From Nitrospira sp. (lineage in GTDB: Bacteria > Nitrospirota > Nitrospiria > Nitrospirales > Nitrospiraceae), in contig CP092079.1 of NCBI GenBank assembly GCA_022226955.1, forward strand, positions 948,015-1,012,014: DNA of 64,000 nucleotides, read 5' to 3'. Position numbers and translations under genes: made by a program. Below the pieces are notes generated by a model. The model was given only the letters and a program-made list of their open reading frames with translations. It was not told the origin of the DNA and did not search any database. Shown here piece by piece: positions 1,309-54,981 of this stretch; positions within the stretch are counted from its first letter, which is position 1; every line of letters begins with the position of its first letter.

Positions 1309-1363
1309 GGTGACAGTTCCTTTCGGCGCCCTGCCGGGCGCAGTGGCAATGAATGATCCGCCG

Positions 1364-4064: not shown

Positions 4065-4097
4065 CGAGCCCCTCCTTCGATTCGCGCTCTCACCGCG

Positions 4098-5054: not shown

Positions 5055-5060
5055 AACTCC

Positions 5061-8136: not shown

Positions 8137-9356
8137 GCAGACCTCTGATCGAGATAGACGGTGGGATCAATGCCGGTGCTGGCGGGATCCGTCACCGCCA
8201 CAATCGACCGCTTCGACGCCCCCTCGGTGTGAGCCAGATCGACGGTCTCCGGATTCGCCATCGTCGCATTGCCGTCGCTCTTGACCACCATGACGACGGG
8301 CTCAAGAGGGGTGGACCGATTGATTCGGCTGACGACTGCAATTTCCCCGGTATTGAGCCGGACGACGGAGCCGACCGGATAGACGCCGACAATCTGGATA
8401 AACCGCTGGACGAGCGTATGCTCGAGATGGCCTTTTTGTGAGATGAGATAGAGGAATTGAAGCGCTTCATGCGCCGGTTTGGCCTTGTGGTAGCAGCGTT
8501 CGCTCGTGATGGCATCGTAAATATCCACGACGGCCGCCATCATCCCGAACTGGCTGAGATCGCACTTCTGACGCTGATAGGGGTAGCCGGTTCCGTCCAC
8601 CCGTTCATGGTGTTCGAGAGCCGGCTTCAAATAGCAATCGGTCAACCCGGTCGTTTGCGAAAGCACTTCGGCGCCCCGCATGACGTGCTGCTTCATGATC
8701 TCGAATTCATGGGCTTCATATTTGCCCGGCTTATTCAAAATCTCCAACGGAATTTTGGTCTTCCCGATATCGTGCAGCAAGGTGCCGACACCGAGTTGAT
8801 GCAAGGAGGTGTCGTCGATGTCCAAGTTGCGCCCGAGCGACAAGGCCAGCACCGACGTGTTGACTGAATGGAAGAACGTATATTCGTCAAAATGCTTCAA
8901 CCGCGAGAGACTAGTCAGCGCGTCAGGATTCCGGATGACGCTGTCGGCCATCTCGGACACCACCTGATTGACGGCATCCATGTTGATGTCGCGCCCCATG
9001 CGCACGTCGAGCATCGCTTCTTCGATGACATTTTTCGCGGCGGTATAGACGAGCTTGGCAGCCGGCAGTTCTTCTTCGAAAGGAATAGCGTCGTTTTCCC
9101 GAGGCGTGGCGAGGATGGGCGCAGTATCGCCGGCTTCGGGCGGCTCCTGAATCGCCCCGTCCCTTGCGGGAGGATCCGGTTCAAGCTCCCCCACGATATC
9201 GAGCGTTTGGACCCCGCAGGCTTTGAGCTGCTCGATCTGCTCCATCGACGTCACTGCCATGCGGTGGCGGAAAAATGGCGTCGCAAACCAGGAGCAGTCC
9301 AGCTTCTCGATGCGCATGCCGGGGCGAAGCTGAGTAATGTGAATGCGTGTAGCCAT
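8133..9356 (-). CDS. HD-GYP c-di-GMP phosphodiesterase with DUF3391-like N-terminus
   Basis: LHDIGK, HHERVDGTGYP, VDIYDA; start moved to MATRIH at 9356 because the longer ORF-track start crosses the divergent promoter. Confidence 0.9.
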   Translation of the reverse strand: MATRIHITQLRPGMRIEKLDCSWFATPFFRHRMAVTSMEQIEQLKACGVQTLDIVGELEPDPPARDGAIQEPPEAGDTAPILATPRENDAIPFEEELPAAKLVYTAAKNVIEEAMLDVRMGRDINMDAVNQVVSEMADSVIRNPDALTSLSRLKHFDEYTFFHSVNTSVLALSLGRNLDIDDTSLHQLGVGTLLHDIGKTKIPLEILNKPGKYEAHEFEIMKQHVMRGAEVLSQTTGLTDCYLKPALEHHERVDGTGYPYQRQKCDLSQFGMMAAVVDIYDAITSERCYHKAKPAHEALQFLYLISQKGHLEHTLVQRFIQIVGVYPVGSVVRLNTGEIAVVSRINRSTPLEPVVMVVKSDGNATMANPETVDLAHTEGASKRSIVAVTDPASTGIDPTVYLDQRSA

Positions 9357-9410
9357 GAATGCGAGTTGCGGGTATCCAGTCGAGTGGCACACCGGTCGAC
9401 GCTGGCTTCT

Positions 9411-9437
9411 GTATCGGAAAGAGCACGGAAATTCTTG
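9411..9437 (-). promoter_or_regulatory. sigma28 (FliA)-type promoter for the HD-GYP/PilZ operon
   Basis: CAAG-N15-TCCGATAC vs consensus TAAA-N15-GCCGATAA. Confidence 0.6.
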
Positions 9438-9506
9438 AGGATACGTCCTCGAAACGGCAACGAGGGCATAAACCGCTTCCAGCCGAAATGCGCATCGCCC
9501 AGTCGT

Positions 9507-9533
9507 TAAGATCGTTCCCCTAGAAACCGATAT
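9507..9533 (+). promoter_or_regulatory. sigma28 (FliA)-type promoter for the HD-GYP/hybrid kinase operon
   Basis: TAAG-N15-ACCGATAT. Confidence 0.7.
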
Positions 9534-9599
9534 AACCTGCGGGATCCTCTCGACATAGGCATGCCTATGCGGATCTGGCAACCGAGGAGATGCGAATTC

Positions 9600-10862
9600 A
9601 TGAGCGGAACGAAGCAGATTTCTGTTGAGCAGTTGATACCGGGCATGTTCATCGTAGAGATGGATCTTCCCTGGTATCGCACACCCTTTCTCTTCCATAA
9701 ACGCCTGATTCGCGATGTCGAAACGATTACGGTGATGAAGCAGCATGGCGTCCGGCACGTCACCATCGATACAACGAAAGGGTTGGACCTACAGATACTG
9801 ACATCCACACCATCCGCCAAACCTGAACTTCCGGCGGCTGTGCCGAATAGTGAAGCCCCCGACTGTGAAACGGTGGAGGAATCCGGCTCCATCCCCATCT
9901 TCATAAGCCGCAGCGTGTCCGCGGTGTATGGGGAAGCGCGCGAGGCGGTGGAGCGTATCTTTACCGACTTGGAACGCGGAGTCCCCCCGGCTCCGGCCGC
10001 CACCAAGGCGATTGTAGGTGGCGTCATCACGCAAGTATTGCAGGACCGCAGCGCACTTCTGTTGCACAGCACCTTCCACAAGGTCAAACAGTTCGACCGG
10101 TCGCTGGGCGCCCATGCCTTGGACACGGCCATCTTGTCGCTGGTCGTTGCCGTTGAAAGCGGCATCGATTCGTCTCTCTACGAACATCTGGGGATCGGTG
10201 CGCTTTTGCACGATGTCGGTTACGTCAGACTTCCTCGCAACCTAGTCCGCAAACGGGACGACTGCACGGAGTCGGAGCAGCGCCTGTTAGAACAACATAC
10301 CCAATTGGGCGTGACGGTGCTTGACGAGCAAGCTGGGTTTCATCCAGAAGTGTGCCGAGTGGTCATGGAGCATCATGAGCGTTGCGATGGAAGCGGATAT
10401 CCGCGAAAGATAGCGGGCGATGCTATTTCGCCACTGGCTCAAATTGTTGGAATCGTAGACTTCTACGACAAGATGATCAGCCGCCGTGGTGGCCGGCCGG
10501 CGATGATTCCTCACGACGCGGTCCGTCAATTATTTCTGGTTGGAGAGCGCGGACAATACCCCAAGCTGTTAGTTGAAGCAGTTATCCGAAGTATCGGCGT
10601 ATACCCCGTGGGAAGCCTCGTTCGTTTGAATACCGGAGAGCAAGCGGTGGTGGTCGGAGTCAACCCGGAACAGCGCTTGAAGCCGCAAGTGAAGATTACC
10701 GGAGGGCCGCATGGAGAATCCTATGCCAATCCTGAACAGGTGGATCTCTCCCTCCCTTCGCAAGATAAGGTATCGCGCACCGTCTTACGCGTACTGGACC
10801 CTATTCAAGAGCGTGTCAATATTGCCATGTACATGGGCGATGCCCCGGATCAGGCAGCCTAA
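9600..10862 (+). CDS. HD-GYP domain protein with DUF3391-like N-terminus
   Basis: LHDVGY, HHERCDGSGYP, VDFYD, GVYPVGSLVRLNTGE; start MSGTKQ (RBS GAGGAG). Confidence 0.9.
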   Translation: MSGTKQISVEQLIPGMFIVEMDLPWYRTPFLFHKRLIRDVETITVMKQHGVRHVTIDTTKGLDLQILTSTPSAKPELPAAVPNSEAPDCETVEESGSIPIFISRSVSAVYGEAREAVERIFTDLERGVPPAPAATKAIVGGVITQVLQDRSALLLHSTFHKVKQFDRSLGAHALDTAILSLVVAVESGIDSSLYEHLGIGALLHDVGYVRLPRNLVRKRDDCTESEQRLLEQHTQLGVTVLDEQAGFHPEVCRVVMEHHERCDGSGYPRKIAGDAISPLAQIVGIVDFYDKMISRRGGRPAMIPHDAVRQLFLVGERGQYPKLLVEAVIRSIGVYPVGSLVRLNTGEQAVVVGVNPEQRLKPQVKITGGPHGESYANPEQVDLSLPSQDKVSRTVLRVLDPIQERVNIAMYMGDAPDQAA

Positions 10863-13702
10863 TGAAGCAGCTTCCACAAGGACGGCGTCCCGCCTCGATT
10901 CGACCGGTGAAGAAACGGCCGGCGCAGGAGCATCAAGGACTTCTGGACGGGCTGCCGATCGGCGTCATCCTGCTGAGCCAGGATGGAGTCATCGCGGCGA
11001 TGAATGCAGAAAGCGCCCGTTTGTGCGGAGCAGGCGTAACAAGCGCTATTGGCGCATCGTTTCCGGAACTGTGGGAGCGGTTGACCGAGCAGACGGCGGC
11101 CGTCACCAAACAGATCATTCAGCAAGTCTTTCGCACGAAGCAGCCCAAGCAACCCGCTCAAGTCTGTCTACAGTGCGACTCCAACCGCTCCATTCCGGTT
11201 GAGTGGACCTGTATGCCGGCCAGCTTCGGCCGGCAAGTCGGCGTCTCGATCAGTCTTCAGGACAAGTCTCGGGAACAGGAGCTGACGTACGATCGCAACC
11301 GGCTCGCATCGATTGCCGATGAAAGCCCCTACCCAATTCTTGAGCTCGACGATCAGGCCAGTCTGCTCTATGCCAATCCCATGATGAGCGAGCTGTTGAC
11401 TCAATTCGGCTACGGAACCGACGGCTTTCCTCAAGTGGCTCCGCAGGGATTGCTCGATCTTGTCCAGCGCTGTCTGGACTCAAATAGGCCTATCCAGGAA
11501 ATTGCCTCCCGCCTCCCCGACGCGCGGTATGCCTGGGTCTTCTGCCCGGTGCAGGCAGACCGCCATGTTCGTGGATATGCCGTAGACCTGACCGAAATGC
11601 AGCGGACGAAAGAAGCCCTCCATGCCTCGGCTGAGGAACTGACTGCGAAAAATCTGCGACTGGATCGGGCGCTTCAGGAAGCGCAAGCCGCCACGCATAC
11701 CAAAGCGGCATTTCTTGCGACCGTCAGTCATGAACTGCGCACTCCCATGAATGGAGTGATTGGCATGACCAGCTTGTTGATGGATACCGGACTGGCGCCA
11801 GAACAGCGCTCGTACGCCGAGACCATTCGCCAATGCGGGGAAGCGCTCCTGCACTTGATTAACGATGTGCTGGAGTGCAGTAAAATCGAAGCGGGAAAAC
11901 TCGAGTTGGAATCGATCGAGTTTAATCTGCGCACGACCGTGGACGATGTGCTAAAGCAGTTTGCCGAACGAGCCGAATCCAAGGGATTGGAATTGACCGG
12001 TCTCATTCATGCCACCGTGCCCACCGGGCTGCGAGGCGACCCGGGCCGGCTCCGCCAGGTCCTGACAAATCTCGTCGGGAACGCAATTAAGTTTACCGAG
12101 CGTGGAGATGTCGCTCTGCAGGTGTATCTCGAAGAGGAAACCACCGGCGACGCGCGGCTCCGATTCGATGTGACCGACAGCGGCATCGGCATCAGCCAGG
12201 AAATCCAGGACAAGCTCTTTCAGCCGTTCGTCCAAGCGGATTCGACCATGACCCGGCAGTATGGAGGAACGGGGCTCGGCTTATCGATTTCCAAACAGTT
12301 GATTGAATTGATGGGTGGACGGATCGGCGTCATGAGCGCGCCGGGGCGCGGCAGCACCTTCTGGTGTACGGTCCGCTTTCCGAAGCAGCCCTCATCGGTG
12401 TCGGCGATTCTTCCCACGGCGGATCTTCAAGGCCGCCGTGTGCTCATCGTGGATGACAATGAGTCCAATCGGCTCATCCTGCATCATCTGGTCACCGGCT
12501 GGGGCATGCGGGATGTCCTTGCGGAGAATGCGGCCACCGCCGTGGCGCACATTGAGGACGCTTCGTGGCGTGGAGCTCCATTCGATTGTGCGATTGTCGA
12601 TGTCGTGATGCCTGGCAAAGACGGCTTGCAATTAGCAGCTGAGCTGCAAAGCCTCCCCTGTGCCGCGCCGACGCGGATCATTGTCATGACTTCTTTATTG
12701 CAGCGAGGACATGCCGAGCGAGCGCGCAAGGTGGGGGCCAAAGGCTATCTTACCAAGCCAGTTCGGCATGATGAATTGCGCGATTGTCTGCGCACAGTGC
12801 TGGGAATGTCTGCGGTTTCAGTCAATGTACCGCAGGCAGACGATACCGCCACACCGCGCTTGGTCACACGGCATACCTTGGCAGAGCCTTCTACACGTCG
12901 AAGGGTGCTCGTTGTCGAAGACAACAGCGTCAATCAGAAGCTCGCCGTGCGGATGCTGGAGAAGCTGGGGTATCGGCCCGATTTAGTCGAGAATGGGCAA
13001 GAGGCCTTGGCCGCACTCGACGCAGGTGCCTATGACGCGGTTCTCATGGATTGCCAGATGCCGGTCATGGACGGGTTCGAGGCCACGGCGACGATTCGGC
13101 GCCAAGAAGCAGCCGGAAAGCGCTATGTCGGCGCCGGCCATTTGCCGATCATTGCGGTGACGGCCAATGCGATGCAAGGCGATCGTGAACGCTGTCTTGC
13201 CGCCGGCATGGATGCGTACCTTTCCAAGCCTATCAAGCTGGAGGATGTGAAAACCACACTGGCGCGATGGATCGCGGCTCCGGCATCGGAAGAAGCACAG
13301 ACGGGCGCAGGGAACCACGCGAATGCCGCGCCCGATGGCCAGAGGGTTTTCAACCCATCGCAAATGCTCCAGAATATTGGAGACGATCACGATCTTCTGA
13401 TTCAATTGATCGACCTGTTTCTCGAACGCCAGACTGACATGATGCGTCAGATCCGGCAGGCCGTCTCTCTTCGCGACGCGGCGACGGTGGAGCGGGCGGC
13501 GCACACGCTCAAAGGCACCGCCGGAAACCTCTGTGCTCAGGAAGTGGCACTGGCCGCAGGGCGGCTCGAAACCATTGGCCGGCAGGGAACGCTTCACGAC
13601 GCTCCGGCCATCTATGCACAGCTCGAAATGGAAATTCTTCGCCTATGCCGCGCCCTCGAACAGTATCGCGGGGCGAACGGTGCCGCGGCTCAAGCCGCAT
13701 AA
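10862..13702 (+). CDS. Cytoplasmic hybrid histidine kinase (PAS-PAS-HisKA-HATPase-REC-REC-HPt)
   Basis: SHELRTPMNG H-box, NLVGNAIKFT, DSGIG, GGTGLGL, two REC domains (IVDVVMP, LMDCQMP), AHTLKG HPt; TAATG overlap with the upstream gene. Confidence 0.93.
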   Translation: MKQLPQGRRPASIRPVKKRPAQEHQGLLDGLPIGVILLSQDGVIAAMNAESARLCGAGVTSAIGASFPELWERLTEQTAAVTKQIIQQVFRTKQPKQPAQVCLQCDSNRSIPVEWTCMPASFGRQVGVSISLQDKSREQELTYDRNRLASIADESPYPILELDDQASLLYANPMMSELLTQFGYGTDGFPQVAPQGLLDLVQRCLDSNRPIQEIASRLPDARYAWVFCPVQADRHVRGYAVDLTEMQRTKEALHASAEELTAKNLRLDRALQEAQAATHTKAAFLATVSHELRTPMNGVIGMTSLLMDTGLAPEQRSYAETIRQCGEALLHLINDVLECSKIEAGKLELESIEFNLRTTVDDVLKQFAERAESKGLELTGLIHATVPTGLRGDPGRLRQVLTNLVGNAIKFTERGDVALQVYLEEETTGDARLRFDVTDSGIGISQEIQDKLFQPFVQADSTMTRQYGGTGLGLSISKQLIELMGGRIGVMSAPGRGSTFWCTVRFPKQPSSVSAILPTADLQGRRVLIVDDNESNRLILHHLVTGWGMRDVLAENAATAVAHIEDASWRGAPFDCAIVDVVMPGKDGLQLAAELQSLPCAAPTRIIVMTSLLQRGHAERARKVGAKGYLTKPVRHDELRDCLRTVLGMSAVSVNVPQADDTATPRLVTRHTLAEPSTRRRVLVVEDNSVNQKLAVRMLEKLGYRPDLVENGQEALAALDAGAYDAVLMDCQMPVMDGFEATATIRRQEAAGKRYVGAGHLPIIAVTANAMQGDRERCLAAGMDAYLSKPIKLEDVKTTLARWIAAPASEEAQTGAGNHANAAPDGQRVFNPSQMLQNIGDDHDLLIQLIDLFLERQTDMMRQIRQAVSLRDAATVERAAHTLKGTAGNLCAQEVALAAGRLETIGRQGTLHDAPAIYAQLEMEILRLCRALEQYRGANGAAAQAA

Positions 13703-24515: not shown

Positions 24516-25442
24516 CTAGCGCAGCAGGGATTCGCTTGCAGCCTGATGTGCGGACGCAGACGCTGTGCTGGGAGTGTCGCTGAGGGAATCGAAGAAGCGA
24601 ACGGGGTTCTCAGAAGTCGCAAGGGCCAGGGCTTTCACGGCCTGGCTCAGCAGGTTTTCTCCCGATGCGGTGGAGGTGGTCGACATGACTCCGCCGATCT
24701 GACAGGTCAACAGCACTTCCTGCCCTTCGATCATCAGAGGCAGCGACATCGTGCGGTAAATATTCTGCGCGAGCGTATCGATCTGATCCCGCGTCGCCAC
24801 GTTTTCAATCAGAATCGCAAACCGCCGATCGCCGATCCTCGCAACCGTATTGTGCGACGGCACCGCGCTCTTGATGCGGGCGGCTTGCACTCGCACGACC
24901 AGCGATATATTGGCGGCGGCTTCCGAGGCTGGAAGCGGACGAAACTGATGCAGGTCCGCGACCAGCACGCCGATGCTGCGGCCCATGTTCGAGGCTCGCG
25001 TCAGCCCTTGTTCGAGAAGCACCGTGAGCAGGCGCAATGTCGGCAAACCAGTCACGTGGTCGTAGGCCGCCAGGCTTTCTTCGTGAGGCTGAACTTTCAC
25101 TTGCTGAGTAAACGGCCACAACCATACGCCTGCAAGGCTGAGACTCACGCTGATGAAGAATCCTATTCCGCCGGCGAGTAATTCTGGCGTGGCAAGCGCG
25201 GCACTGCTGCCCATGCCAAGCGAGGTTCTCACCGGCAGACTCATCAACCAGTAGGCCGCCAAAAGACCGGCCGCGAGGGCCAGCGTAAAACAGCCCATGG
25301 ATTTCGTGCGAGATAATGCGCCGGCTCTTGAACGAGAGCGGCTCAAGCGGGAAAGTCCAAGCGTGAATGGCCCGCGGTATCCGACAGGCGATGTGAGGGC
25401 TTGTGAATTCATTGCTGTATGTTGTTCTCTATCCATGAGCAA
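24516..25442 (-). CDS. Membrane protein with a degenerate GGDEF domain
   Basis: Two hydrophobic helices, then DHVTGLPT, ADLHQF, ARIGDRRFAIL, LTCQIG (GGDEF fold, signature lost); start may be 25434 or 25413. Confidence 0.75.
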   Translation of the reverse strand: MLMDREQHTAMNSQALTSPVGYRGPFTLGLSRLSRSRSRAGALSRTKSMGCFTLALAAGLLAAYWLMSLPVRTSLGMGSSAALATPELLAGGIGFFISVSLSLAGVWLWPFTQQVKVQPHEESLAAYDHVTGLPTLRLLTVLLEQGLTRASNMGRSIGVLVADLHQFRPLPASEAAANISLVVRVQAARIKSAVPSHNTVARIGDRRFAILIENVATRDQIDTLAQNIYRTMSLPLMIEGQEVLLTCQIGGVMSTTSTASGENLLSQAVKALALATSENPVRFFDSLSDTPSTASASAHQAASESLLR

Positions 25443-41431: not shown

Positions 41432-41868
41432 GACCGCGCATCTCCCTGGCCGGTGAAACGGTGATGGGCCGATTCATCGGTCGCCAGTTGCTCGCGGCGG
41501 CGCATCTCCGCCAATGCCGCCTCTCGATACCGCTCAATCAGTCGATCCAAGGTCCGCCGATCCTGACTCGCCGCTACCAGCCTGGCTCGCGCTTCTTCCC
41601 ATTGCAGTTGCCAATGCGCCAGGGTTCGGCGAGCTTGCTTCGCCGCGGACGCCTGCGCTTCAAAGTGCGACTGCCACTGCAACAACTGCTCGATCGTCAT
41701 GCCTTGACGGGTTTCTTCGCGATATTGTTCTTCCTGCCGCTGCCGAGTGTCCGCCAAACGGGCGATGGACTGTTCCGCCTGAAGGAGCTGCTGAGTGACC
41801 TCCGCAAGCTCCATCTTGATCTGCTCCTCGACTTGGAGCCGATAGTGCTGTACGGCCTGTACGCTCAT
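41428..41868 (-). CDS. fliJ: Export chaperone/ATPase stalk FliJ
   Basis: 146-aa coiled coil after fliI; ARLVAASQDRRTLDRL, EQLATDE. Confidence 0.85.
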   Translation of the reverse strand: MSVQAVQHYRLQVEEQIKMELAEVTQQLLQAEQSIARLADTRQRQEEQYREETRQGMTIEQLLQWQSHFEAQASAAKQARRTLAHWQLQWEEARARLVAASQDRRTLDRLIERYREAALAEMRRREQLATDESAHHRFTGQGDARS

Positions 41869-43169
41869 GTTTGCCGCGCCAATGTGAGAAGGTCCTGCCG
41901 GGACGAGGCAAAGTCGGCGGGCTGTTCAACCGCTTGACGGAGATATCCGTTAATGGCCTCTTGCCCACGCACGGCTCGATCCAACGTGGCATTCATTCCC
42001 TGCTTATAGGCCCCGAGAAGAATCAGATCTTCAGATTGGCGATACCGCGCCATCAATTCGATGGTTTGACGCGCCGCGGCCTCATGCTCGCGCGTGACGA
42101 TGTCGCGCATGACTCGGCTGGTGCTTTGAAGCAAATCGATTGCCGGAAAATGGTTCTGCGCCGCCAGCGCGCGCGAAAGAACGATATGCCCATCCAAAAT
42201 CGACCGCACCGTATCGGCAATTGGATCGGATAGATCGTCGCCATCCACAAGCACCGTATATAACCCGGTAATCGTGCCGATCCCAGGCCCAGTCCCCACC
42301 CGTTCCAGCAGTTTGGGAAGCATCGCGAAGACCGACGGCGTATAGCCTTTCGTTGTCGGAGGTTCGCCGATTGCCAACCCCACTTCCCGCTGGCTGTAGG
42401 CCAGCCGGGTCAGCGAATCCATCATCAACAAGACCTGGCGGCCTTGGTCGCGGAAGTATTCGGCAATGCAGGTCGCCACCAGAGAGGCCCGCAATCGCAC
42501 CATCGGCGGTTGATCCGATGTAGCCACAATGACGACCGACCGCTTCAACGCCTCCGCGCCTAGGTCGCGCTCAAGAAACTCGTTCACCTCGCGTCCGCGC
42601 TCGCCGATCAGCGCGATCACATTGACATCCGCTTGGGTATACCGACTGATCATGCCGAGCAAGACGCTCTTTCCAACGCCCGACCCGGCGAAGATTCCGA
42701 CTTTCTGTCCACGCCCACAGGTCAAGAAGCCGTTGATTGCCCGCACGCCCAAGTCCAATGGAGTCGTGATCCTGTTGCGCGACAGCGGATTCGGCGGGCT
42801 TGCCTGGAGGGGATAGTGCGTCTGTGCGATGAGCGGCCCCTTGCCGTCCAGCGGTTCTCCCAGCCCATTCAAAACTCGTCCAAGCAGCGCAGGCCCCACC
42901 GCGAGTCCGGCCGATTGGCCTGTCATGGCAATGCGGCTCGACGGGCCGATTCCATGCATGTCGCCCAGCGGCATCAGCAACACCCGGTCCCCTCGAAATC
43001 CGACCACCTCCGCTGGAATCGATCCTTTGCCGTCTTCTCTCGTGATGCGGCACATATCGCCGACTGTCGAGCGCGCGCCGGTGCCTTCAATGACCAGGCC
43101 AACGGCTTGCGCCACCCGCCCGGTAATGTCCAACGGCTCGACCTGATCCAACAAATCACTGAGCGACAT
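41865..43169 (-). CDS. fliI: Flagellar export ATPase FliI
   Basis: GIFAGSGVGKS, LIGERGREV, MDSLTR, GEPP..KGY.PSV; start MSLSD at 43169. Confidence 0.96.
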   Translation of the reverse strand: MSLSDLLDQVEPLDITGRVAQAVGLVIEGTGARSTVGDMCRITREDGKGSIPAEVVGFRGDRVLLMPLGDMHGIGPSSRIAMTGQSAGLAVGPALLGRVLNGLGEPLDGKGPLIAQTHYPLQASPPNPLSRNRITTPLDLGVRAINGFLTCGRGQKVGIFAGSGVGKSVLLGMISRYTQADVNVIALIGERGREVNEFLERDLGAEALKRSVVIVATSDQPPMVRLRASLVATCIAEYFRDQGRQVLLMMDSLTRLAYSQREVGLAIGEPPTTKGYTPSVFAMLPKLLERVGTGPGIGTITGLYTVLVDGDDLSDPIADTVRSILDGHIVLSRALAAQNHFPAIDLLQSTSRVMRDIVTREHEAAARQTIELMARYRQSEDLILLGAYKQGMNATLDRAVRGQEAINGYLRQAVEQPADFASSRQDLLTLARQT

Positions 43170-44205
43170 GCGATCCTCGTGCGCGCAGCGCGTCGCCCAA
43201 TCGAAACAATTGCGTATCGAGCGAGGCATCCACGACTCGGTTGGCCGTCTGCACAATGCAACTTCCCCTGGACAGCGTCATATCGGGCTCGATATGGAGC
43301 GAGAGGGTGAGATCTCCCACCTGGCTCAACTCGCCGCGCAGCGCTTCCAACGTGGCGGCGTCGGCGGGATGCACCGTGATCGTCGCCCGGCCGGACTCTT
43401 TCAAAGCCGCCAGCGCCGCTTTGGCTTGCTCCACCACCTGTTCTTTCACTTGATCGGCGCGATCGCGGAGAATTTTGACCGCAATCTGAAAGGCCACACT
43501 CACCACGTCGTCTTCCATCGTTTGATGCAAGGCCAGCCAGGCTTGATCGAATTTTCTCACGGCATTCGAGAACAGCGTCCGCTCGTGGCGGCGCCGCTCT
43601 TCATCCCTGGCGCAGGCTCGCCGCTCGCCTTCGGCAATGCCGCGTTCGTATTCGGTCAGTCCATCTTGCCCGCGCGTCACGCCGTCTTCGCCGAACGTTT
43701 GCAGCACCATGCTGTGCACACGCAAGCCGCCGGCCCGCACCACCGCATGTTTCAAGACCGTGTTTTCCGCGCGCAGCGCATGCAGTTCGAGCAGCCGCCT
43801 GGCGGTCATCAGCACGACATCGTTCTGAATCGGCTTCATGAAGAATTCGGCCGCGCCGGCTTTCATCGCCCGGACGGCCAACTCGACGCTCGGCGAGCCG
43901 GTCATCACCACGCTGATTACTCGCTGGTCGAACGCCTGCACCTGCTCCAAGAGCTGAATGCCGTCCAAGTCCGGCAACATGATGTCTGCCATCAACAGAG
44001 CCGGCGGGGCTTGCTTCACCATCGCCAGCGCTTCTTGGGCAGTCCCGGCAACCCGAATGACCACCCCTTCCGATCGAAAAAGCTCGACGAAAAGATTCCG
44101 GATCGTCTCGTCGTCGTCAACGACCAGAATCGACCCGAGCAGTTTCGAAGATCCGATTGCCGCCGGCGTGGAGGATTTGGCTGGCAGCGAGGCACTCGTG
44201 ACCAT
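43156..44205 (-). CDS. fliH: FliH with an N-terminal response-regulator receiver domain
   Basis: Residues ~24-140 form a REC domain (VVDDD, ADIMLP, MTG, MKP); C-terminal half has YERGIAEG, ITVHPAD, EPD..LSRGSCIVQT...VDASLDTQL (FliH); lies between fliG and fliI in one continuous ORF. Confidence 0.9.
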   Translation of the reverse strand: MVTSASLPAKSSTPAAIGSSKLLGSILVVDDDETIRNLFVELFRSEGVVIRVAGTAQEALAMVKQAPPALLMADIMLPDLDGIQLLEQVQAFDQRVISVVMTGSPSVELAVRAMKAGAAEFFMKPIQNDVVLMTARRLLELHALRAENTVLKHAVVRAGGLRVHSMVLQTFGEDGVTRGQDGLTEYERGIAEGERRACARDEERRRHERTLFSNAVRKFDQAWLALHQTMEDDVVSVAFQIAVKILRDRADQVKEQVVEQAKAALAALKESGRATITVHPADAATLEALRGELSQVGDLTLSLHIEPDMTLSRGSCIVQTANRVVDASLDTQLFRLGDALRARGSHVAQ

Positions 44206-48153: not shown

Positions 48154-49560
48154 CTACGGCTCCGGCGCCGTCAGCGGCAGTTCGGTTTCGCGATACTCAC
48201 GCAGTTTATTTCTCAAGGTTCGGATGCTGATTCCCAATTCCTTCGCCGCATGCGTCCGGTTATCCTTGACCCGCGATAATGTCTTGAAAATCAGTTCCCG
48301 CTCCATCTCCCAGAGCGATCCGTTCGACGGCGCGTGCGAGGGAATTGGAACCGGATTCGCAACGACGGCCTGGTCCTGACGGGCCTCGGGAAGGTGCATC
48401 GGAAGGATGGTCCCCTGCCCGGCGAGCAAGACGGCGCGTTCCATCACATTTTCCAGTTCCCGCACGTTTCCTTTCCACGGCAGCGTATGGAGATGCGCCA
48501 CGGCGGCGTCCGATACCGCCGGTTGAGCGACGCCATTCCTGACGGCGGAGGCGCCGGTAAAATGACGCGCCAGCAAGGCGATGTCAGCCGGCCGTTCTCT
48601 CAGTGGAGGCACGGTGACGGGGAACACGTTGAGCCGGTAATAGAGATCCTCGCGGAACCGCCCCTGCTCCACTTCCCGGTAGAGCGTGCGATTCGTGGTC
48701 GCGATCACTCGGATATTGACGGCCACTGGGTCGCGGCCGCCGATGCGATCCACCTCACGCTCTTGCAGCACCCGCAAGAGCTTCGCCTGAAGGCCCAAAT
48801 TCATCTCGCTGATTTCATCCAGGAGAATAGTCCCGGTATGCGCCATTTCAAACTTGCCGATTTTTCTCATCATGGCGCCGGTAAACGCGCCTCGCTCATG
48901 TCCGAAAAGCTCGCTTTCCAGCAAGCCGTCCGGCAACGCGGCGCAATTTACGGCAATGAACGGCCGGTGCGCGCGCGGGCTGCGCATATGGATGAACCGA
49001 GCCAGCAATTCCTTGCCCGTCCCGCTCTCTCCATTGATCAAGACCGTCGCTTGACTGGCGGCCACGCCTTCGACCGTGCTGAGCAGCCGAATCATGCCGG
49101 GGTCTTGAGTCAGAATCGCGCGCCCTTCGACAGACGTCGATACGCCGGGCGATTCGAGATCCCGCCCTTCTTTGAGGTTCGCGATGACCCGTTCAAGCAA
49201 GTCCATGGAAAACGGCTTGAGTAAATAATCGCTGGCCCCAAATTTCATCGCATCGACGGCCGTCTCCACCGTCCCATAGGCGGTCATCAACACGATCATG
49301 GTCTGCGGCGCGCGCGCCTTAATATCTTTGATCAGATCCAATCCCGTGATGCGCGGCATCTTCAAATCGGTGATGACGAGCCAGGGGCGGAAGCGCGCCA
49401 CCCGCTCCAACGCATCGGCGCCATCGATAGCGCCCTGCACCTCGTACCCCAATCGCCGGACTGATTCCATCAACGCGGTGCGCATCGACGGTTCATCGTC
49501 GACGATGAGAATGCGATCCTGACTCTCCGTGCTGTCCATTGCGTTCTCGCGGTCATTCAT
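48154..49560 (-). CDS. fleR: sigma54-dependent response regulator, FleR/FlrC-like
   Basis: REC (ITDLKMP), GESGTGKE, GAFTGA, HTH (NRTHAAKELGISIRTL); start MNDRE (RBS GGAGGA). Confidence 0.88.
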   Translation of the reverse strand: MNDRENAMDSTESQDRILIVDDEPSMRTALMESVRRLGYEVQGAIDGADALERVARFRPWLVITDLKMPRITGLDLIKDIKARAPQTMIVLMTAYGTVETAVDAMKFGASDYLLKPFSMDLLERVIANLKEGRDLESPGVSTSVEGRAILTQDPGMIRLLSTVEGVAASQATVLINGESGTGKELLARFIHMRSPRAHRPFIAVNCAALPDGLLESELFGHERGAFTGAMMRKIGKFEMAHTGTILLDEISEMNLGLQAKLLRVLQEREVDRIGGRDPVAVNIRVIATTNRTLYREVEQGRFREDLYYRLNVFPVTVPPLRERPADIALLARHFTGASAVRNGVAQPAVSDAAVAHLHTLPWKGNVRELENVMERAVLLAGQGTILPMHLPEARQDQAVVANPVPIPSHAPSNGSLWEMERELIFKTLSRVKDNRTHAAKELGISIRTLRNKLREYRETELPLTAPEP

Positions 49561-50857
49561 GGGCGCGTTCCTCCATCGTCTCGACATGGACGGCCGACTT
49601 CGAATCGGATGCCGGCCGCTCATGCCCGCCAGGCCACTCTAGGGATTCTGCTCCTGCTATGGACGGCTCTGCCGGATGGGGCAGCAGAATCGTAAACGTC
49701 GTGCCTTCCCCAAGCTGGCTCTCGACGTCGATGCGTCCGTGATGCGCATCGATGATCGCATGCACAATCGCCAGGCCTAACCCGGTGCCTTCATCCTTCG
49801 TCGTAAAGAAGGGATCGAATATTCTGGAGCGGTGAGCCGGATCGATCCCTGGGCCGTTATCGGCGATGGTCAGACAAATCGCGCGCCCTCCAAAGGATGA
49901 ACTGTCTGCCTGCTCTAGTTTGAGCGTCAAAATTCCTCCGGTGGGCATGGCTTGAACGGCGTTTAAAATCAGATTCAAGACGACTTGTTTGAACTGTCCT
50001 TCGTTGCACCACATCGCCGGAATGCGGGGGTCGAGATCGAGCCGGATATCCACGGGGGTCTTGGTAATGGCATGGGCCGCCAATGTCAGGGCGTCCAATA
50101 TTAGCGTCTCGACGGTCTGCCAGCCGCGCGCCGATCGCTCCGGCTGTGTATAGATCAACAGATTGGATAGCAGGCGGTCCAGGCCATGGACGGCCTGAGA
50201 AATCTGCTCCGCATAAGCCAGGCTTGCAGGCTGCTCCTGCAAGTCGCGCCGCAGCATGGAGGCGAACAACTCGATACTGCCGAGCGGGTTGCGGATCTCA
50301 TGGGCGATTCGCCCGACCATTTCACCCATCGCCACTAAGCGGTGCTGGCGTTGCAAGCGTTCCTCCAAGCGGCACATCTGGGTAACATCGTGAATGAGGA
50401 TCAGCTGGCCTGACGATTGCTCCGAAGAAGCCTCCAGCGAGCGTTGCGCGATGGTCAGCACATGAGCCTCGTGCCGTTGAGGCTGTTCACTCACGGTGAG
50501 CTGAAGGCCATCCAAGAGCGCCTGCGCGAATTGTCCTCGAAGTGCATCGTCGGAACGGCCGAGGAGGCGCGTGGCGGCCGCGTTCACCCTCGTCACTCGC
50601 CCGCCGAGATCCACGACCAAAACTCCAGTGGTCAGAGAGTCCAGAATTCCGCTCAGATGCGCCCGCATCGCTTCGTTGTCTTGAAGCTGCTGCCGCAAGG
50701 CGGCATTGCTCTGGGACAGCTCCACATCCATCTGCTCTATGCGATCGGTCAGCGTGGCATACGACCGCTGCAGCGTATGGGCGGCTTGGTCGAAGGTATG
50801 AAAGGCCTCTTGAAGCAGGTCTCGCTCAGCGGGATGCAATGCGGTCGATGGGGTCAT
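49553..50857 (-). CDS. fleS: Cytoplasmic PAS sensor kinase, FleS/FlrB-like
   Basis: N-terminal coiled coil, PAS, AHEIRNPLGS, NLILNAVQA, FFTTK..GTGLGL; no TM helix. Confidence 0.88.
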   Translation of the reverse strand: MTPSTALHPAERDLLQEAFHTFDQAAHTLQRSYATLTDRIEQMDVELSQSNAALRQQLQDNEAMRAHLSGILDSLTTGVLVVDLGGRVTRVNAAATRLLGRSDDALRGQFAQALLDGLQLTVSEQPQRHEAHVLTIAQRSLEASSEQSSGQLILIHDVTQMCRLEERLQRQHRLVAMGEMVGRIAHEIRNPLGSIELFASMLRRDLQEQPASLAYAEQISQAVHGLDRLLSNLLIYTQPERSARGWQTVETLILDALTLAAHAITKTPVDIRLDLDPRIPAMWCNEGQFKQVVLNLILNAVQAMPTGGILTLKLEQADSSSFGGRAICLTIADNGPGIDPAHRSRIFDPFFTTKDEGTGLGLAIVHAIIDAHHGRIDVESQLGEGTTFTILLPHPAEPSIAGAESLEWPGGHERPASDSKSAVHVETMEERAHE

Positions 50858-53022
50858 AGTCCCTCCTGCGGCAACTGCCGCTCCTGTTTAATGCTTTCAT
50901 GGAACGAACTTGAAAACCGGCTCATCAGCGCGTCGCCGCCCTGTCCAAGTTCGGCGAGCGCCACCGTGGCGCGATCGTGCTCTTTCAAGGCTTGCCAGCC
51001 GCGGACGATCTGCAACCGGGCCCATTGGAGCTGATCCCGGTCTGGTTTTTTCTCGATGACGGTATGGTAGACATCGATGGCCTCTCGATGCCGCTTCATT
51101 TGCGCCAGCAGATCGGCGTAGGCCAGCAATGCGGCGGTGGTTTTCGGCGCGCCGGCTTTAAACGCTTCTTCTGTCGCAATCACGGCTTCCTCAGGTTTAT
51201 TCAGGCGCAAAAATACTGAAGCCATTTGTTGATACATCCAGGGGCGATCCGGATGTTTTGGATGATGGAGCATCCAAGCTCGACAGAAATGCAGGAGACC
51301 GGCCCAATCGCCCCTATCCGCCATCGTCTGGACAAGCAGATGCAGCGCTTCCTGTTCGAAGCGGCCCTCCGGATATTCCAAGCGATAGCGCTCCAGCACC
51401 TTTCTGGCCGCCGCCGTGTCGCGTTGCGAGAGATAGACTTTCGCCAAGCCAAGGAGGGCCTGTTCAGTGCCCTGAATGCGCTTGCTTCCTTTGGCCATGA
51501 GTTGATAGAGGCGGCCGGCTTCCGTCGTAAACCCGAGGCGGTCGTGCGCGTCGGCAATGTCGAGCAAGAGCGGAGAGGACAGATAGTACCGTTCTGCGGC
51601 AGGCCCATGCCGGTGAAACAGCGTCGTCAGGGTGACATCGTCATGCGATTTGACGGCGGCCTCCATCCAGGGACGCAGGATCGCGGCCAGCCGCTCGCCG
51701 GCTTTAGCTGGCCAGGGATCGTCCGGCCCTCCGCTGGTGCGGTCTGCCACCAATTTATAGGCAATCAGCGCTGGCGCAATCTCTTCCGATTGTTCCAGAT
51801 GCGCGGCCACTTGATACAAGGCCTCGCTCCCGATCGCATCCTGATCATGCTGCGCGGCAATCGCCTGCATCTGTTTCAGATAGTCTTCCAGGCTCTGATT
51901 CGGCGAGGGATCGTCATAGATAAGTCCCGCAACGCTTGGAGGCGCAGGATTGTTCTCGGCGGCGACTTTCTGCTCCACTCTAAGCGTCGCCAGGCGCACC
52001 GCCGCCAGCACTGCTTGGGAACTGTCTTTGTAGTGCGCCGCAATAAATCCATACAACAATTCCGCGCTGGGCAGGTATTTCGAGGCTTGCAGACTATCGG
52101 CCAGCCGCAACAGCATGGCCGATGCCTCTTGGTGCGCAGGGTACAAATTGTAGAACTGGAGCAACAAACCCCGGCCGATCACCTCATGGCGCAAATCCAG
52201 TTGAATCAAGGCATACCGTCCCAGCGCAAGCGGATTCATTCGCAAAAACTTCGGCCAGCGCCGATAGGCCAAGTCGTACATCGTCGATGCATCCTGAGCC
52301 CGGCGCTGCTGAAAGAAGGAGGAGGCGAGACCGATGGTGGCGTGCAATAAAATTTGATCGTGCTGGCTTCGCTTCCGCAAATCCTCGAATGTCAGCTCCG
52401 CATCCCGCCATTTCTCCAAGGCCAGCGCGGTATAGCCGAGACCGAGCAACGCCCGCTCCCCGTCCGGCGATTGCGCATTATGCGATAGCGCTCGTTCGTA
52501 GAGAGATTGCGCTTCCTGATGCCATCCTTGCGAGAGATACACATCGGCCATGCGCCACTCGGCGCGTTTCGCGTTTACTGATTGCGGATAATCCCGCAGC
52601 AGCGTCTTGTATCGATCGAGTGCTTCCAACCGGCTGCTGTTTTCCGTGTTTTCTCTCAAGGCGGTCTCGGCGAGAAAGGTCATCGCCGTGGGAGTCAGCG
52701 CGCTTTCCGGTTGCTGACCAATCACTTTTTCAAAAAACCGGCGCGCCTGAGACCACTCTCCCTTGCCATAGGCGTTCATGCCTTCCTGCAAGGCCAGCGC
52801 GTCCATGCCTTGCGACTGCCCTTCAAGCCGCGGTCCGTCATCCGGCAAGGTCGAGAGTGCGAGTCCCTTCGAATCGGACGCATGCGCCGGAGAAGAAGGC
52901 GCCGAGGCCGTCGCTGACTCAGCATGCACCAGCGCGAAATCTCCGAGCGCCATTGGCCGCAGGCACAGCCAGGCAAAGAGCAAAAGGGTCAGTTGTGTCC
53001 AAGATCGGTGTGATGAGTACAC
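50854..53022 (-). CDS. Exported tetratricopeptide-repeat protein
   Basis: Signal-peptide-like N-terminus and many TPR-like helical repeats (e.g. AEWRMADVY, ALLGLGY, ALYQVA); ATGA overlap with fleS. Confidence 0.8.
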   Translation of the reverse strand: MYSSHRSWTQLTLLLFAWLCLRPMALGDFALVHAESATASAPSSPAHASDSKGLALSTLPDDGPRLEGQSQGMDALALQEGMNAYGKGEWSQARRFFEKVIGQQPESALTPTAMTFLAETALRENTENSSRLEALDRYKTLLRDYPQSVNAKRAEWRMADVYLSQGWHQEAQSLYERALSHNAQSPDGERALLGLGYTALALEKWRDAELTFEDLRKRSQHDQILLHATIGLASSFFQQRRAQDASTMYDLAYRRWPKFLRMNPLALGRYALIQLDLRHEVIGRGLLLQFYNLYPAHQEASAMLLRLADSLQASKYLPSAELLYGFIAAHYKDSSQAVLAAVRLATLRVEQKVAAENNPAPPSVAGLIYDDPSPNQSLEDYLKQMQAIAAQHDQDAIGSEALYQVAAHLEQSEEIAPALIAYKLVADRTSGGPDDPWPAKAGERLAAILRPWMEAAVKSHDDVTLTTLFHRHGPAAERYYLSSPLLLDIADAHDRLGFTTEAGRLYQLMAKGSKRIQGTEQALLGLAKVYLSQRDTAAARKVLERYRLEYPEGRFEQEALHLLVQTMADRGDWAGLLHFCRAWMLHHPKHPDRPWMYQQMASVFLRLNKPEEAVIATEEAFKAGAPKTTAALLAYADLLAQMKRHREAIDVYHTVIEKKPDRDQLQWARLQIVRGWQALKEHDRATVALAELGQGGDALMSRFSSSFHESIKQERQLPQEGL

Positions 53023-53036
53023 GGCAAGGCTACCTC

Positions 53037-53052
53037 AGCAAAGAGTATGCCT
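53037..53052 (-). promoter_or_regulatory. sigma54 promoter of the TPR-fleS-fleR operon
   Basis: AGGCATACTCTTTGCT, GG-N10-GC. Confidence 0.75.
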
Positions 53053-53159
53053 TTAGCCTCACGATGCGGATTCGTTTGAGTATCGGGAAGAAACTGGAAG
53101 GAGGTCAGCAGATCAGATCAATCGGCCGTCAAATCGGCCGACAAGGATTTTTGAGGATC

Positions 53160-53173
53160 GTCAACGATTTGAC
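53160..53173. promoter_or_regulatory. Candidate FleQ-type enhancer box
   Basis: GTCA-ACGATT-TGAC, about 110-120 bp upstream of -24. Confidence 0.55.
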
Positions 53174-53186
53174 GGCATCAGACACA

Positions 53187-54599
53187 CTAATTCGACAACG
53201 CATCGACACGGGGTTTCGAGTCTATTCCGCGTCGCTTCAACTTCTCGACAAGGGTGGTGCGATTGACGTGGAGCAGCTGCGCCGCTCGCGCGGTCACGCC
53301 ATTCGCCTTGCGCATGGCTTCTCCGATCAACTGATTTTCATACTGCTCCACTTCATTGGAGAGATGAATCCCCTCTTCGGTAAAGCGGATAAACTGTTCC
53401 TTCAGCTCTGGCTGACCCACCGTTTTCCTGTGCAGCTTCTCGGGCAAATCGGCAAGGGTCAAGAGCCCCTGCTTCTTCAGCACGACCAGGCGCTCGATCA
53501 TGTTTTCCAACTCGCGGATATTTCCAGGCCACTGAAAATCCATTAGCAGTTCCAGCGCATCAGGGGCAAACCCCTCGATAGCAGTTCGCTTCATATGATT
53601 GAATCGATTCAGGAAATGCTCAATCAGCAAGGGAATATCGCTTTGCCGGTCGCGCAACGGCGGCGTGACGATCGGGATCACATTCAAGCGATAGTAGAGG
53701 TCTTGCCGGAAGCGTTTTTCCTCAACCAGCTTCTCAAGGTCCTGATTGGTTGCGGCAACAATCCGCACATCGACCTGAATGGTCCGGCTGCCCCCCACCC
53801 GCTCAAATGAGCGCTCTTGGATGACGCGCAGAAGTTTTACCTGCAACGAGAGACTCATTTCGCCGACTTCGTCGAGAAAAATCGTTCCGCCATTGGCAAG
53901 CTCGAACCGGCCCATGCGCGTCTGAGCCGCGCCGGTGAAGGCGCCCTTTTCATGCCCGAACAGTTCAGATTCAAGCAGCGTTTCCGGAATGGCCCCGCAG
54001 TTAACCGGCACCATTGGCCGATCTTTTCGAGAACTATTGAAGTGGAGCATGCGCGCCACCAATTCTTTTCCGGTGCCGCTTTCTCCCTGAATCAAGACCG
54101 TGCTGTCGCTGTCGGCGACTTTTTGCACGAAATCCAAGACTTGCTGCATCGGTTCGCTGACGCCAATCAACTGCTCAAGACGGTACTGCTCGCGCACGGC
54201 TTTCCGAAGCAGATGATTCTCCTGGCGAAGGCGTTGAAACTCGATCGCCTTTTTCACCACCACCACGACGGTATCGGGGTCGAACGGCTTCGTCACGAAA
54301 TCGAATGCGCCGGCTTTCATCGCCTGGACCGCGCATTCGACCGTCCCAAACCCGGTCATGACGATGGGGATAATCTTGGAATCGATCCTGGTCACACGCT
54401 CGATCACTTCGATGCCGTTAAAATCCGGCAGCTGAAAATCCGTGACCAAAATCTGAACGGGATGCTCTTTGACGACTTGTATGCCCGTTGTCGCATCGGC
54501 GGCAACGGAGACGGTATAGCCTTCCGAAGACAGCGTCTCATGCAGTACATCACGCACTGCTTGGTCGTCATCGATAACGAGAATATGGAGAGGAGGCAT
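53187..54599 (-). CDS. fleQ: sigma54-dependent activator, FleQ/FlrA-like master regulator
   Basis: REC (VIDDD, VTDFQLP), GESGTGKE, GAFTGA, HTH (AAQLLHVNRTTLVEKLKR); heads the flagellar cluster; start MPPLHI at 54599. Confidence 0.8.
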   Translation of the reverse strand: MPPLHILVIDDDQAVRDVLHETLSSEGYTVSVAADATTGIQVVKEHPVQILVTDFQLPDFNGIEVIERVTRIDSKIIPIVMTGFGTVECAVQAMKAGAFDFVTKPFDPDTVVVVVKKAIEFQRLRQENHLLRKAVREQYRLEQLIGVSEPMQQVLDFVQKVADSDSTVLIQGESGTGKELVARMLHFNSSRKDRPMVPVNCGAIPETLLESELFGHEKGAFTGAAQTRMGRFELANGGTIFLDEVGEMSLSLQVKLLRVIQERSFERVGGSRTIQVDVRIVAATNQDLEKLVEEKRFRQDLYYRLNVIPIVTPPLRDRQSDIPLLIEHFLNRFNHMKRTAIEGFAPDALELLMDFQWPGNIRELENMIERLVVLKKQGLLTLADLPEKLHRKTVGQPELKEQFIRFTEEGIHLSNEVEQYENQLIGEAMRKANGVTARAAQLLHVNRTTLVEKLKRRGIDSKPRVDALSN

Positions 54600-54981
54600 T
54601 AGATTGTTATTCCCAAATGATATATAAAAATATGGCGCATAGGATAAAGATCCCGCCGCATCAATGCAAGCACAACGATCACGCTCACGCCGGGTGGTCG
54701 GCTGGGCCATGGGTCAGCAGTTAAGCCGAGCAAGCCATCATGATGGCGCTGGTGCGTAATTCGGCTAACCTTGCTCACCCATTCCGATTCATGACGATCA
54801 CCCTTTCCGGTACAGCATGACCCGTCGTTTTGGTGGTCATGATCACCGTCGTCCGGCAAGCCTGACCACTGGCAGACCTTTTAACTAGCTGTCCTTTCTC
54901 CTGGTTAAGCGAGTTGGTGAACTTGGTGTCCCGCCATCGCACTGCCATTGACCCGCAGCACGACGCCGGTGGTGTGAGCAG

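Follow-up and report, generated by a model that had tools for sequence, protein, structure and literature searches.

A receiver domain joined to the flagellar export adaptor FliH in Nitrospiraceae: architecture, single origin and possible role

In the flagellar cluster of an activated-sludge Nitrospira, the export adaptor FliH carries a complete two-component receiver domain (REC) and a linker helix at its N-terminus. This fusion, referred to here as REC-FliH, was gained once within the family Nitrospiraceae, and its receiver was copied from a transcriptional activator encoded in the same cluster. The DNA analyzed, called the window below, is a stretch of 64,000 nucleotides of Nitrospira sp. 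contig CP092079.1 (assembly GCA_022226955.1) that holds a large flagellar cluster, and the gene is one uninterrupted open reading frame (ORF) of 349 aa on its minus strand (window 43156-44205). A sequence-only reading of the same DNA had already placed this ORF in the fliH slot, with exact coordinates and with the strand left out, and had stated that no characterized REC-FliH was known; our search of the literature for a receiver-FliH fusion likewise found no description. We observe the architecture of the gene, its sole-copy status, its single origin, the lineage that donated the receiver, and the conservation of the phospho-site, the linker and a peptide at the junction. New in this work are the exceptions within the family, the rooted single gain, the receiver donor, the junction, a degenerate receiver and the negative tests of candidate kinases.

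FliH is a dimeric adaptor, the C-terminal domain of which binds the ATPase FliI, while its N-terminus tethers the complex to the C ring (FliN) and to FlhA. In the dimer, the C-domains clasp the N-terminus of FliI (5B0O). Response regulators with outputs other than DNA binding are well known, and so is FliH. The control of flagellar assembly is thought to rest mainly on transcription hierarchies, on the switching of secretion substrates and, in some bacteria, on cyclic di-GMP (c-di-GMP); we know of no description of a two-component system that acts directly on the export ATPase complex.

The fused gene and its locus

Both domains of REC-FliH score well above their Pfam cut-offs, Response_reg (PF00072) at residues 26-131 (E 6.9e-23, 81.4 bits against 30.2) and the FliH domain (PF02108) at residues 210-334 (E 2.6e-18, 66.6 bits against 24.1). 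With NCBIfam, the first half is matched by receivers of the NtrX/FixJ/AtoC/NtrC type and the second half by FliH or HrpE/YscL models under their equivalog cut-offs. The FliH models match the C-terminal half only, and their equivalog scores are not reached (NF004270, 64.8 bits against 180; TIGR03825, 55.5 against 148.9), as is expected for a divergent and extended FliH. Pfam found no match to PF00158 or HTH_8 in REC-FliH, and the receiver and linker are the sole parts it has in common with the activators; lacking both AAA+ and helix-turn-helix (HTH) domains, it is not a sigma-54 enhancer-binding protein. The closed 3.64-Mb genome contains a single PF02108 match, which is REC-FliH, and by domain, position and sole-copy status the protein is the FliH of this organism. 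Some of its orthologues carry the NCBI names 'response regulator', 'FliH' or, wrongly, 'F0F1 ATP synthase subunit delta'; the last name arises because the FliH C-domain weakly resembles OSCP (PF00213), and this annotation error hides the fusion.

On the minus strand, the gene order is flgB-flgC-fliE-fliF-fliG-[REC-fliH]-fliI-fliJ, and the genes downstream of REC-fliH on the same strand are fliI, fliJ, an MgtE_N-like gene, fliK, flgD and flgE. The cluster also includes flhF and flhG, as in polar flagellates. The fliG stop directly abuts the start of REC-fliH (TAA|ATG), with a GGGAGG 11 nt upstream of this ATG, and the fliI ATG at 43169 overlaps the 3' end of REC-fliH by 14 nt. REC-fliH therefore belongs to a translationally coupled fliFGHIJ unit, and this coupling on both sides favors a single product translated from the annotated start. 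The parts of the gene and its two immediate neighbors are as follows.

43156-44205, minus strand: REC-FliH gene, 349 aa plus stop; ORF with Pfam REC and FliH domains, the only FliH of the genome
44134-44205, minus strand: leader, residues 1-24; unconserved and without an aromatic residue (30% mean pairwise identity), with a predicted local distance difference test (pLDDT) below 50 for residues 1-20
43825-44133, minus strand: receiver core, residues 25-127; D30/D31, D74, T102, F121 and K124-P125; from Pfam, AlphaFold2 (AF2) and Foldseek
43732-43824, minus strand: alpha5 and NtrC1/DctD-type linker LELHALRAENTVLKHAVV, residues 128-158; the best conserved segment
43654-43731, minus strand: flexible junction, residues 159-184; with a conserved peptide that is a candidate C-ring/FlhA docking peptide from the FliH N-terminus
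43456-43653, minus strand: long FliH helix, residues 185-250; begins YERGIAEGERR, with a G189/G193 GxxxG-type repeat, pLDDT about 90
43156-43455, minus strand: globular FliH C-terminal domain, residues 251-349 plus stop; expected to be the FliI-binding part
41865-43169, minus strand: fliI, export ATPase; NCBIfam FliI/YscN, 588 bits
44206-45231, minus strand: fliG; TIGR00207, 328 bits

It is hardly credible that the fusion is an artifact, be it an assembly or frameshift error that joined a response regulator to fliH or the production of FliH from an internal start, both of which the sequence-only reading had named as possible refutations. An identical 1401-nt stretch occurs in single Logan contigs of two independent studies, and a third study yielded a strain variant in which all differences are substitutions and the receiver-FliH junction is free of insertions and deletions. 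The same single ORF recurs in over 100 homologues (53-94% identity) that come from independent assemblies, several of them closed genomes, and each of them is annotated with the two Pfam domains. As to an internal start, the junction of the window's gene does contain an ATG (M166), but residue 166 varies among the homologues (45 with Leu, 31 with Val and 29 with Met), as does residue 133 (59 with Met, 22 with Ala and 14 with Thr), and no Met is conserved downstream of the receiver (n=131). Neither a Shine-Dalgarno-like sequence before M166 in the window's gene nor a promoter-like site within the REC-FliH ORF was found when these were looked for.

Taxonomic range, single gain and donor of the receiver

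The search for REC and FliH in one protein, which had been proposed in the sequence-only reading, finds the fusion in nine Nitrospiraceae genera, and a rooted tree traces it to a single gain. In a sample of 301 genomes from across the phylum, only Nitrospiraceae have matches that cover both domains. Among 251 genomes of the order, long PF02108 frames (at least 336 aa) occur in the genera that we label g1, g2, g4, g5, g6, g8, g124, g126 and g128; in the sister families f2, f3 and f35, the frames of all FliH among the matches listed measure 111-275 aa. In three further genera of Nitrospiraceae, g3, g9 and g122 (four genomes, with the loci read at L014:4749-5360, L015:14441-15091, L115 and L119), the gene between fliG and fliI encodes a canonical FliH of about 200 aa, and the fusion is therefore not fixed family-wide. 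The layout of these short-FliH genera is otherwise identical (activator A-TPR-kinase-activator B-flgBC-fliEFGHIJ, where TPR stands for a tetratricopeptide repeat protein), which makes them the natural comparators of the fused form.

A tree of concatenated FliF, FliG and FliI (1272 columns; 17 fused and four short-FliH Nitrospiraceae) was rooted with the sister families, all of which have a short FliH. The four short-FliH genomes form one clade (100/100), and all 17 fused genomes together form its sister clade (89/87). This rooted topology implies one gain and no loss, and the gain has been kept through nine genera. In a library of 1.84 billion representatives, the full REC-FliH architecture is present in about 13 clusters at 50% identity; for several of these, identity to any sampled genus is only 40-50%, and one is named Nitrospiraceae. 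A scan of species representatives returned full-length matches from Nitrospira and Nitrospiraceae records only. Weaker, independent REC-FliH fusions may exist in other phyla. The other top library matches with two or three matched stretches proved to be multi-receiver proteins and not REC-FliH, and a partial match in an unclassified metagenome-assembled genome (MAG; L064), considered as an independent fusion, is an ordinary NtrC-type activator.

Two further observations concern the fate of fliH in the family. In one genome of the window's own genus (G092:C3:62167-63075), the FliH match is broken by a TAA and the open frame is 215 aa; a pseudogene and a MAG sequencing error are both possible. 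At least 20 Nitrospiraceae genomes have no FliH at all, six of them from the window's genus and most at least 94% complete; flagella have been lost repeatedly in the family.

The cluster encodes two activators of the receiver-sigma-54 ATPase type, together with a TPR protein and a kinase (the latter is described with the candidate donors below), and this four-gene cassette, in the order activator A-TPR-kinase-activator B, is conserved across the family.

53187-54710, minus strand: activator A, REC-sigma54 AAA-HTH (Pfam); intact receiver, no adjacent kinase; donor lineage of the FliH receiver
48154-49623, minus strand: activator B, REC-sigma54 AAA-HTH, FleR/FlrC/FlbD-like (Pfam, NCBIfam); paired with the PAS kinase

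The TPR protein, of 722 aa and with one N-terminal hydrophobic segment, is encoded between activator A and the PAS kinase (within window 50854-54710).

The sequence-only reading had estimated roughly 40% ungapped identity between the receiver and the activator of the cluster. With BLASTP, the receiver and linker of FliH are 40% identical to activator A over 142 residues, ungapped at residues 25-155, and another alignment gives 42% over residues 25-156; identity to activator B is 32% over 116 residues. In every Nitrospiraceae genome, the query's best second match falls on the orthologue of activator A, at a distance of about 10 kb. We built a tree of 56 receiver-plus-linker segments, including similar activators from seven other phyla. 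All FliH receivers form one clade (99/96), and this clade groups with the activator-A receivers of Nitrospiraceae (96/84), apart from activator B and from the activators of the seven other phyla, so that the suggested specific relationship to a flagellar master-type activator is recovered with a named partner. The consensus sequences agree in the same direction, with FliH matching activator A at 65 of 139 positions and activator B at 40 of 139, and the linker RLRxENxxL(K/R)xAV is common to FliH and activator A, not B. Taken together, the identity, the tree and the common linker indicate that the added module was copied from activator A, receiver and linker together, on the branch that leads to the fused clade. 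Within the FliH receiver clade, the branching order agrees with the flagellar core tree, as expected under vertical descent.

Conservation, fold and the junction

Conservation was counted over the 131 full-length REC-FliH homologues. The acidic pair is D30 (D in 123 of 131, E in 5) and D31 (D in 119); D74 is kept in 130, T102 in 128, and K124 and P125 in 130 each. The residues listed in the sequence-only reading are thus all in place, namely D30/D31/D32 (VVDDDE), D74 (LMADIMLPD), T102 (VMTG) and K124-P125 (FMKP), and the third way in which that reading could have failed, a receiver that cannot be phosphorylated, is not suggested by phospho-site residues that are present and nearly invariant. 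The receiver looks functional as judged from its sequence. Mean pairwise identity is 66% in the receiver core and 69% in alpha5 and the linker (128-158), against 58% in the junction (159-184), 55% in the FliH helix, 58% in the FliH C-domain and 30% in the leader (1-24); the added module, and the linker above all, is constrained at least as strongly as FliH proper.

The AF2 model (monomer, alignment of 115 sequences, mean pLDDT 81, predicted TM score, pTM, 0.41) shows a standard (beta-alpha)5 receiver (pLDDT about 90) and a long alpha5-linker helix at 128-146 and then 151-157. These are followed by a disordered segment at 159-184, one 66-residue helix at 185-250 (pLDDT about 90) and a compact alpha/beta C-domain (pLDDT 85-94). 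Foldseek against the PDB returned receivers only, with TM scores of 0.84-0.94 to solved receivers and about 0.9 to those of NtrX and NtrC1. By Foldseek and a PDB sequence search, NtrX, NtrC1, LuxO and DctD have the nearest solved receivers, with a match that spans the linker helix to residue 153. The FliH part alone gave a weak match to Salmonella FliH (5b0o, E 0.19). The linker LELHALRAENTVLKHAVV aligns with the linkers of NtrC1 and DctD and with activator A, having the LRxENxxL(R/K) signature after alpha5, and the receiver can be assigned to the NtrC1/DctD subclass as a bona fide member. It shares with the receivers of NtrC1, DctD and NtrX (1NY5, 1ZY2, 1L5Y, 4D6X), which are its best matches in sequence and fold, the RLRxENxxL(K/R) helix after alpha5 and the intact D-D/D/T/K set, and it derives from such an activator in its own cluster. 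Unlike theirs, its output is a type III export ATPase adaptor and not an AAA+ sigma-54 ATPase with an HTH domain, and its alpha1 positions have diverged from those of the parental activator A.

One natural variant departs from this pattern. In genome G136 of genus g4 (L016:4920-6026), the receiver is degenerate (D30V, D74G, T102V and K124V), while the FliH part and the flagellar cluster are intact; in a sister species, G083 (L017:5158-6291), all those receiver residues are kept. The G136 domain is, to judge from these substitutions, a pseudo-receiver variant of the fusion. Its branch in the receiver tree has a length of 1.5, against a median of 0.16, and constraint has therefore been released only in that lineage.

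Comparison of the fused with the short proteins locates the join. The short FliH proteins of the order start with [WF]-[SA]-x-[VI]-[IL]-K followed by a hydrophobic or aromatic patch (GLAVESFEMAEL, VLAIESWEALDL, SYQLEP or QYEIKAL), and those of g3, g9 and g122 begin (M/V)-x-x-x-D-F-A-x-I-L-K. The linker of the fused proteins has E-N-x-V-L-K at its end, and then come a junction peptide, a variable spacer and YERGxAEG, where the FliH helix starts. The junction peptide reads G-[LVI]-R-[VLI]-x-[SA]-[FLM]-x-[LF]-Q-T-F-G-[ED]-D-G, and can also be written as G-[LVI]-R-[VLI]-x-S-[LVM]-x-[LF]-Q-T-F-G-[ED]-D-G. Within it, R162 is found in 118, Q169 in 119 and F171 in 123 of the 131 homologues, and at the start of the helix G189 is found in all 131 and G193 in 128. 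An hhalign comparison of the fused junction with the N-termini of the short FliH proteins gave an E of 5e-5 for this single comparison, with a probability of 40%, and paired VLK with ILK and the patches that follow. The join would accordingly be placed at the FliH start or a few residues within it, and the FliN/FlhA docking peptide may have been retained, hanging directly off the signaling helix of the receiver. The sequence-only reading had asked whether the aromatic FliN-binding residues of FliH are lost. The leader (residues 1-24) has no aromatics and is unconserved, and it is not expected to serve as a substitute docking element, but the conserved peptide at 159-172, with F171, resembles the N-terminus of a short FliH; the docking element has therefore probably been retained rather than lost.

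REC-FliH can thus be set beside canonical FliH/SctL (PF02108; Salmonella FliH2-FliI, 5B0O). Like the canonical protein, it is encoded between fliG and fliI as the only copy of the genome, has a FliH C-terminal domain over the Pfam threshold and a long central helix with a YERGxAEG (GxxxG-type) start, and carries a short conserved hydrophobic peptide N-terminal to this helix. Unlike it, REC-FliH has about 160 extra N-terminal residues, consisting of the leader, the complete receiver and the coiled-coil linker, and its candidate docking peptide would be internal and not at a free N-terminus. The Trp-x-x-Trp motif of Salmonella FliH is missing.

Possible role, rival explanations and neighboring genes

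Receivers of the NtrC1/DctD type form an unphosphorylated dimer through alpha4-beta5-alpha5 and a coiled-coil linker (1NY5, 1ZY2, 1L5Y), and in such regulators phosphorylation re-packs the receiver dimer and frees the downstream domain. By analogy, a sequence of events can be proposed for REC-FliH. In an ancestor of most Nitrospiraceae, the receiver and coiled-coil linker of activator A would have been fused in frame to FliH at its very N-terminus. Asp74 would be phosphorylated by a histidine kinase or an Hpt domain, and the receiver dimer and linker helix would rearrange as in NtrC1/DctD-type proteins. Because the peptide at 159-172 begins directly after the linker helix, this rearrangement could alter the accessibility or geometry of the two docking peptides in the FliH dimer, and the outcome would be either an altered recruitment of FliH2-FliI to the export gate or an altered restraint of FliI by FliH. 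The net effect would be post-translational two-component control of flagellar export beside the sigma-54 transcriptional cascade. We lean slightly toward the general proposition that phosphorylation changes the docking of the FliH dimer or the regulation of FliI by FliH; the version acting through the docking peptides is put forward only tentatively. The sequence-only reading had already proposed a two-component gating of ATPase-complex docking, which architecture by itself can suggest. That phosphorylation occurs, by which kinase, in which direction it acts and whether it acts through the docking peptide are points that we infer.

Two soluble kinases encoded in the window are candidate phospho-donors.

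49553-50857, minus strand: soluble PAS-HisKA-HATPase kinase, FleS/FlgS-like (Pfam); no hydrophobic segment; candidate donor
10862-13702, plus strand: soluble hybrid kinase PAS-HisKA-HATPase-REC-REC-Hpt (Pfam); no transmembrane segment; at the edge of the flagellar cluster; second candidate donor

Several results weigh against phosphorylation control of export as outlined here. The cassette of activator A, TPR protein, kinase and activator B is unchanged in the short-FliH genera. Full-length orthologues of the hybrid kinase lie about 30 kb from fliH in crown genera, but the orthologue is also full-length in the short-FliH genus g3 and missing from the fused genera g4 and g128, a phyletic pattern that does not follow the fusion and does not favor this kinase as the donor. 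The alpha1 specificity positions of the FliH receiver match neither activator A nor activator B, which leaves unsupported the earlier suggestion that one kinase serves both the activator and FliH. None of these three comparisons led to the assignment of a kinase. The AF2 model has no defined inter-domain geometry (pTM 0.41), and the resemblance between the junction peptide and the FliH N-terminus is no more than suggestive (hhalign probability 40%). G136 has lost D74, T102 and K124 with an intact cluster, and phosphorylation is therefore dispensable in at least one lineage. Export in Salmonella is not strictly dependent on FliH and FliI when the proton motive force is high, and control through FliH may therefore only modulate export.

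The receiver could instead be a phosphate sink or feedback node, held on FliH at the base of the nascent flagellum, that competes with activators A and B or relays to them, in which case its main output would be the timing of transcription and not the activity of FliH. The cluster does contain a soluble PAS kinase by activator B, activator A is an orphan whose receiver is intact, the FliH receiver is paralogous to that of activator A, and flhF and flhG are present as in polar flagellates. Such a node would also fit soluble kinases of the FlgS/FlrB/FleS type, which are activated at the export gate, the MS ring and the rotor (PMC3760246, PMC7064773). We nevertheless consider it unlikely: the diverged alpha1 positions argue for insulation rather than for a common kinase, a sink has no need of a linker helix and junction peptide as the most conserved parts, and the sister genera with the same kinase and activator cassette do without the receiver. 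A purely structural role, with phosphorylation irrelevant and the domain behaving like a pseudo-receiver, for instance by stabilizing the N-terminal coil or by binding another basal-body protein, seems to us quite unlikely. It would be in keeping with the full-length receiver-like domain of G136, with the constitutive dimerization of NtrC1/DctD-type receivers through alpha4-beta5-alpha5 and the linker, and with the fact that FliH works as a dimer, so that an extra dimerization or docking module can be pictured; it leaves unexplained, however, the near-invariance of the five phospho-chemistry residues in 130 of the 131 homologues, and the long branch of G136 marks relaxed constraint there alone. 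Decidedly unlikely, in our view, is the more far-reaching proposal that REC-FliH couples flagellum assembly and flagellar transcription in both directions. Here the soluble flagellar kinase, activated at the completed export gate, MS ring and rotor, would phosphorylate both the sigma-54 activators and the receiver on FliH, phosphorylation of the FliH spoke would switch the export ATPase complex on, and a single event would license secretion and the next transcriptional tier; in a variant, occupancy of the FliH receiver would tell the kinase the number of docked export complexes.

Returning to phosphorylation control of export, which we favor, its nearest relatives are found among other flagellar signaling systems. 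As with CheY, which binds FliM/FliN, and with c-di-GMP brakes such as YcgR, the signal would go directly to a component of the basal body and not to a promoter. Those proteins are free-standing and control rotation, whereas the REC-FliH receiver is a covalent part of the export adaptor and would act on assembly or export. Like the FlgSR, FlrBC and FleSR clusters (PMC3760246, PMC7064773), the present one combines a soluble kinase with an NtrC-type regulator, sigma-54 and FlhF/FlhG; FliH of those systems is canonical, and no export-apparatus protein in them is known to carry a receiver.

If this reading is true, the receiver on FliH is a natural post-translational signaling input to a type III secretion ATPase adaptor. 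The fusion also offers a case of domain shuffling that is cleanly dated and whose donor gene still lies 9 kb away, and the system is approachable in vitro with small soluble proteins and no need of Nitrospira genetics. Nitrospira are the main nitrite oxidizers and comammox organisms in wastewater treatment and soils, and the switching between motile and aggregated states is therefore of practical interest.

A sugar-modification block next to the flagellar cluster (window 301-7210) comprises a split transketolase, a nucleotidyl transferase, a GHMP kinase, two epimerases/dehydratases and a DegT-type aminotransferase, and it may serve flagellin glycosylation. Genes of c-di-GMP signaling frame the cluster (window 7417-10862 and 24516-25442):

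7417-8136, minus strand: YcgR-like PilZNR-PilZ protein
8133-9758, minus strand, and 9561-10862, plus strand: two DUF3391-HD-GYP-type proteins
24516-25442, minus strand: GGDEF protein between flgF and fliA

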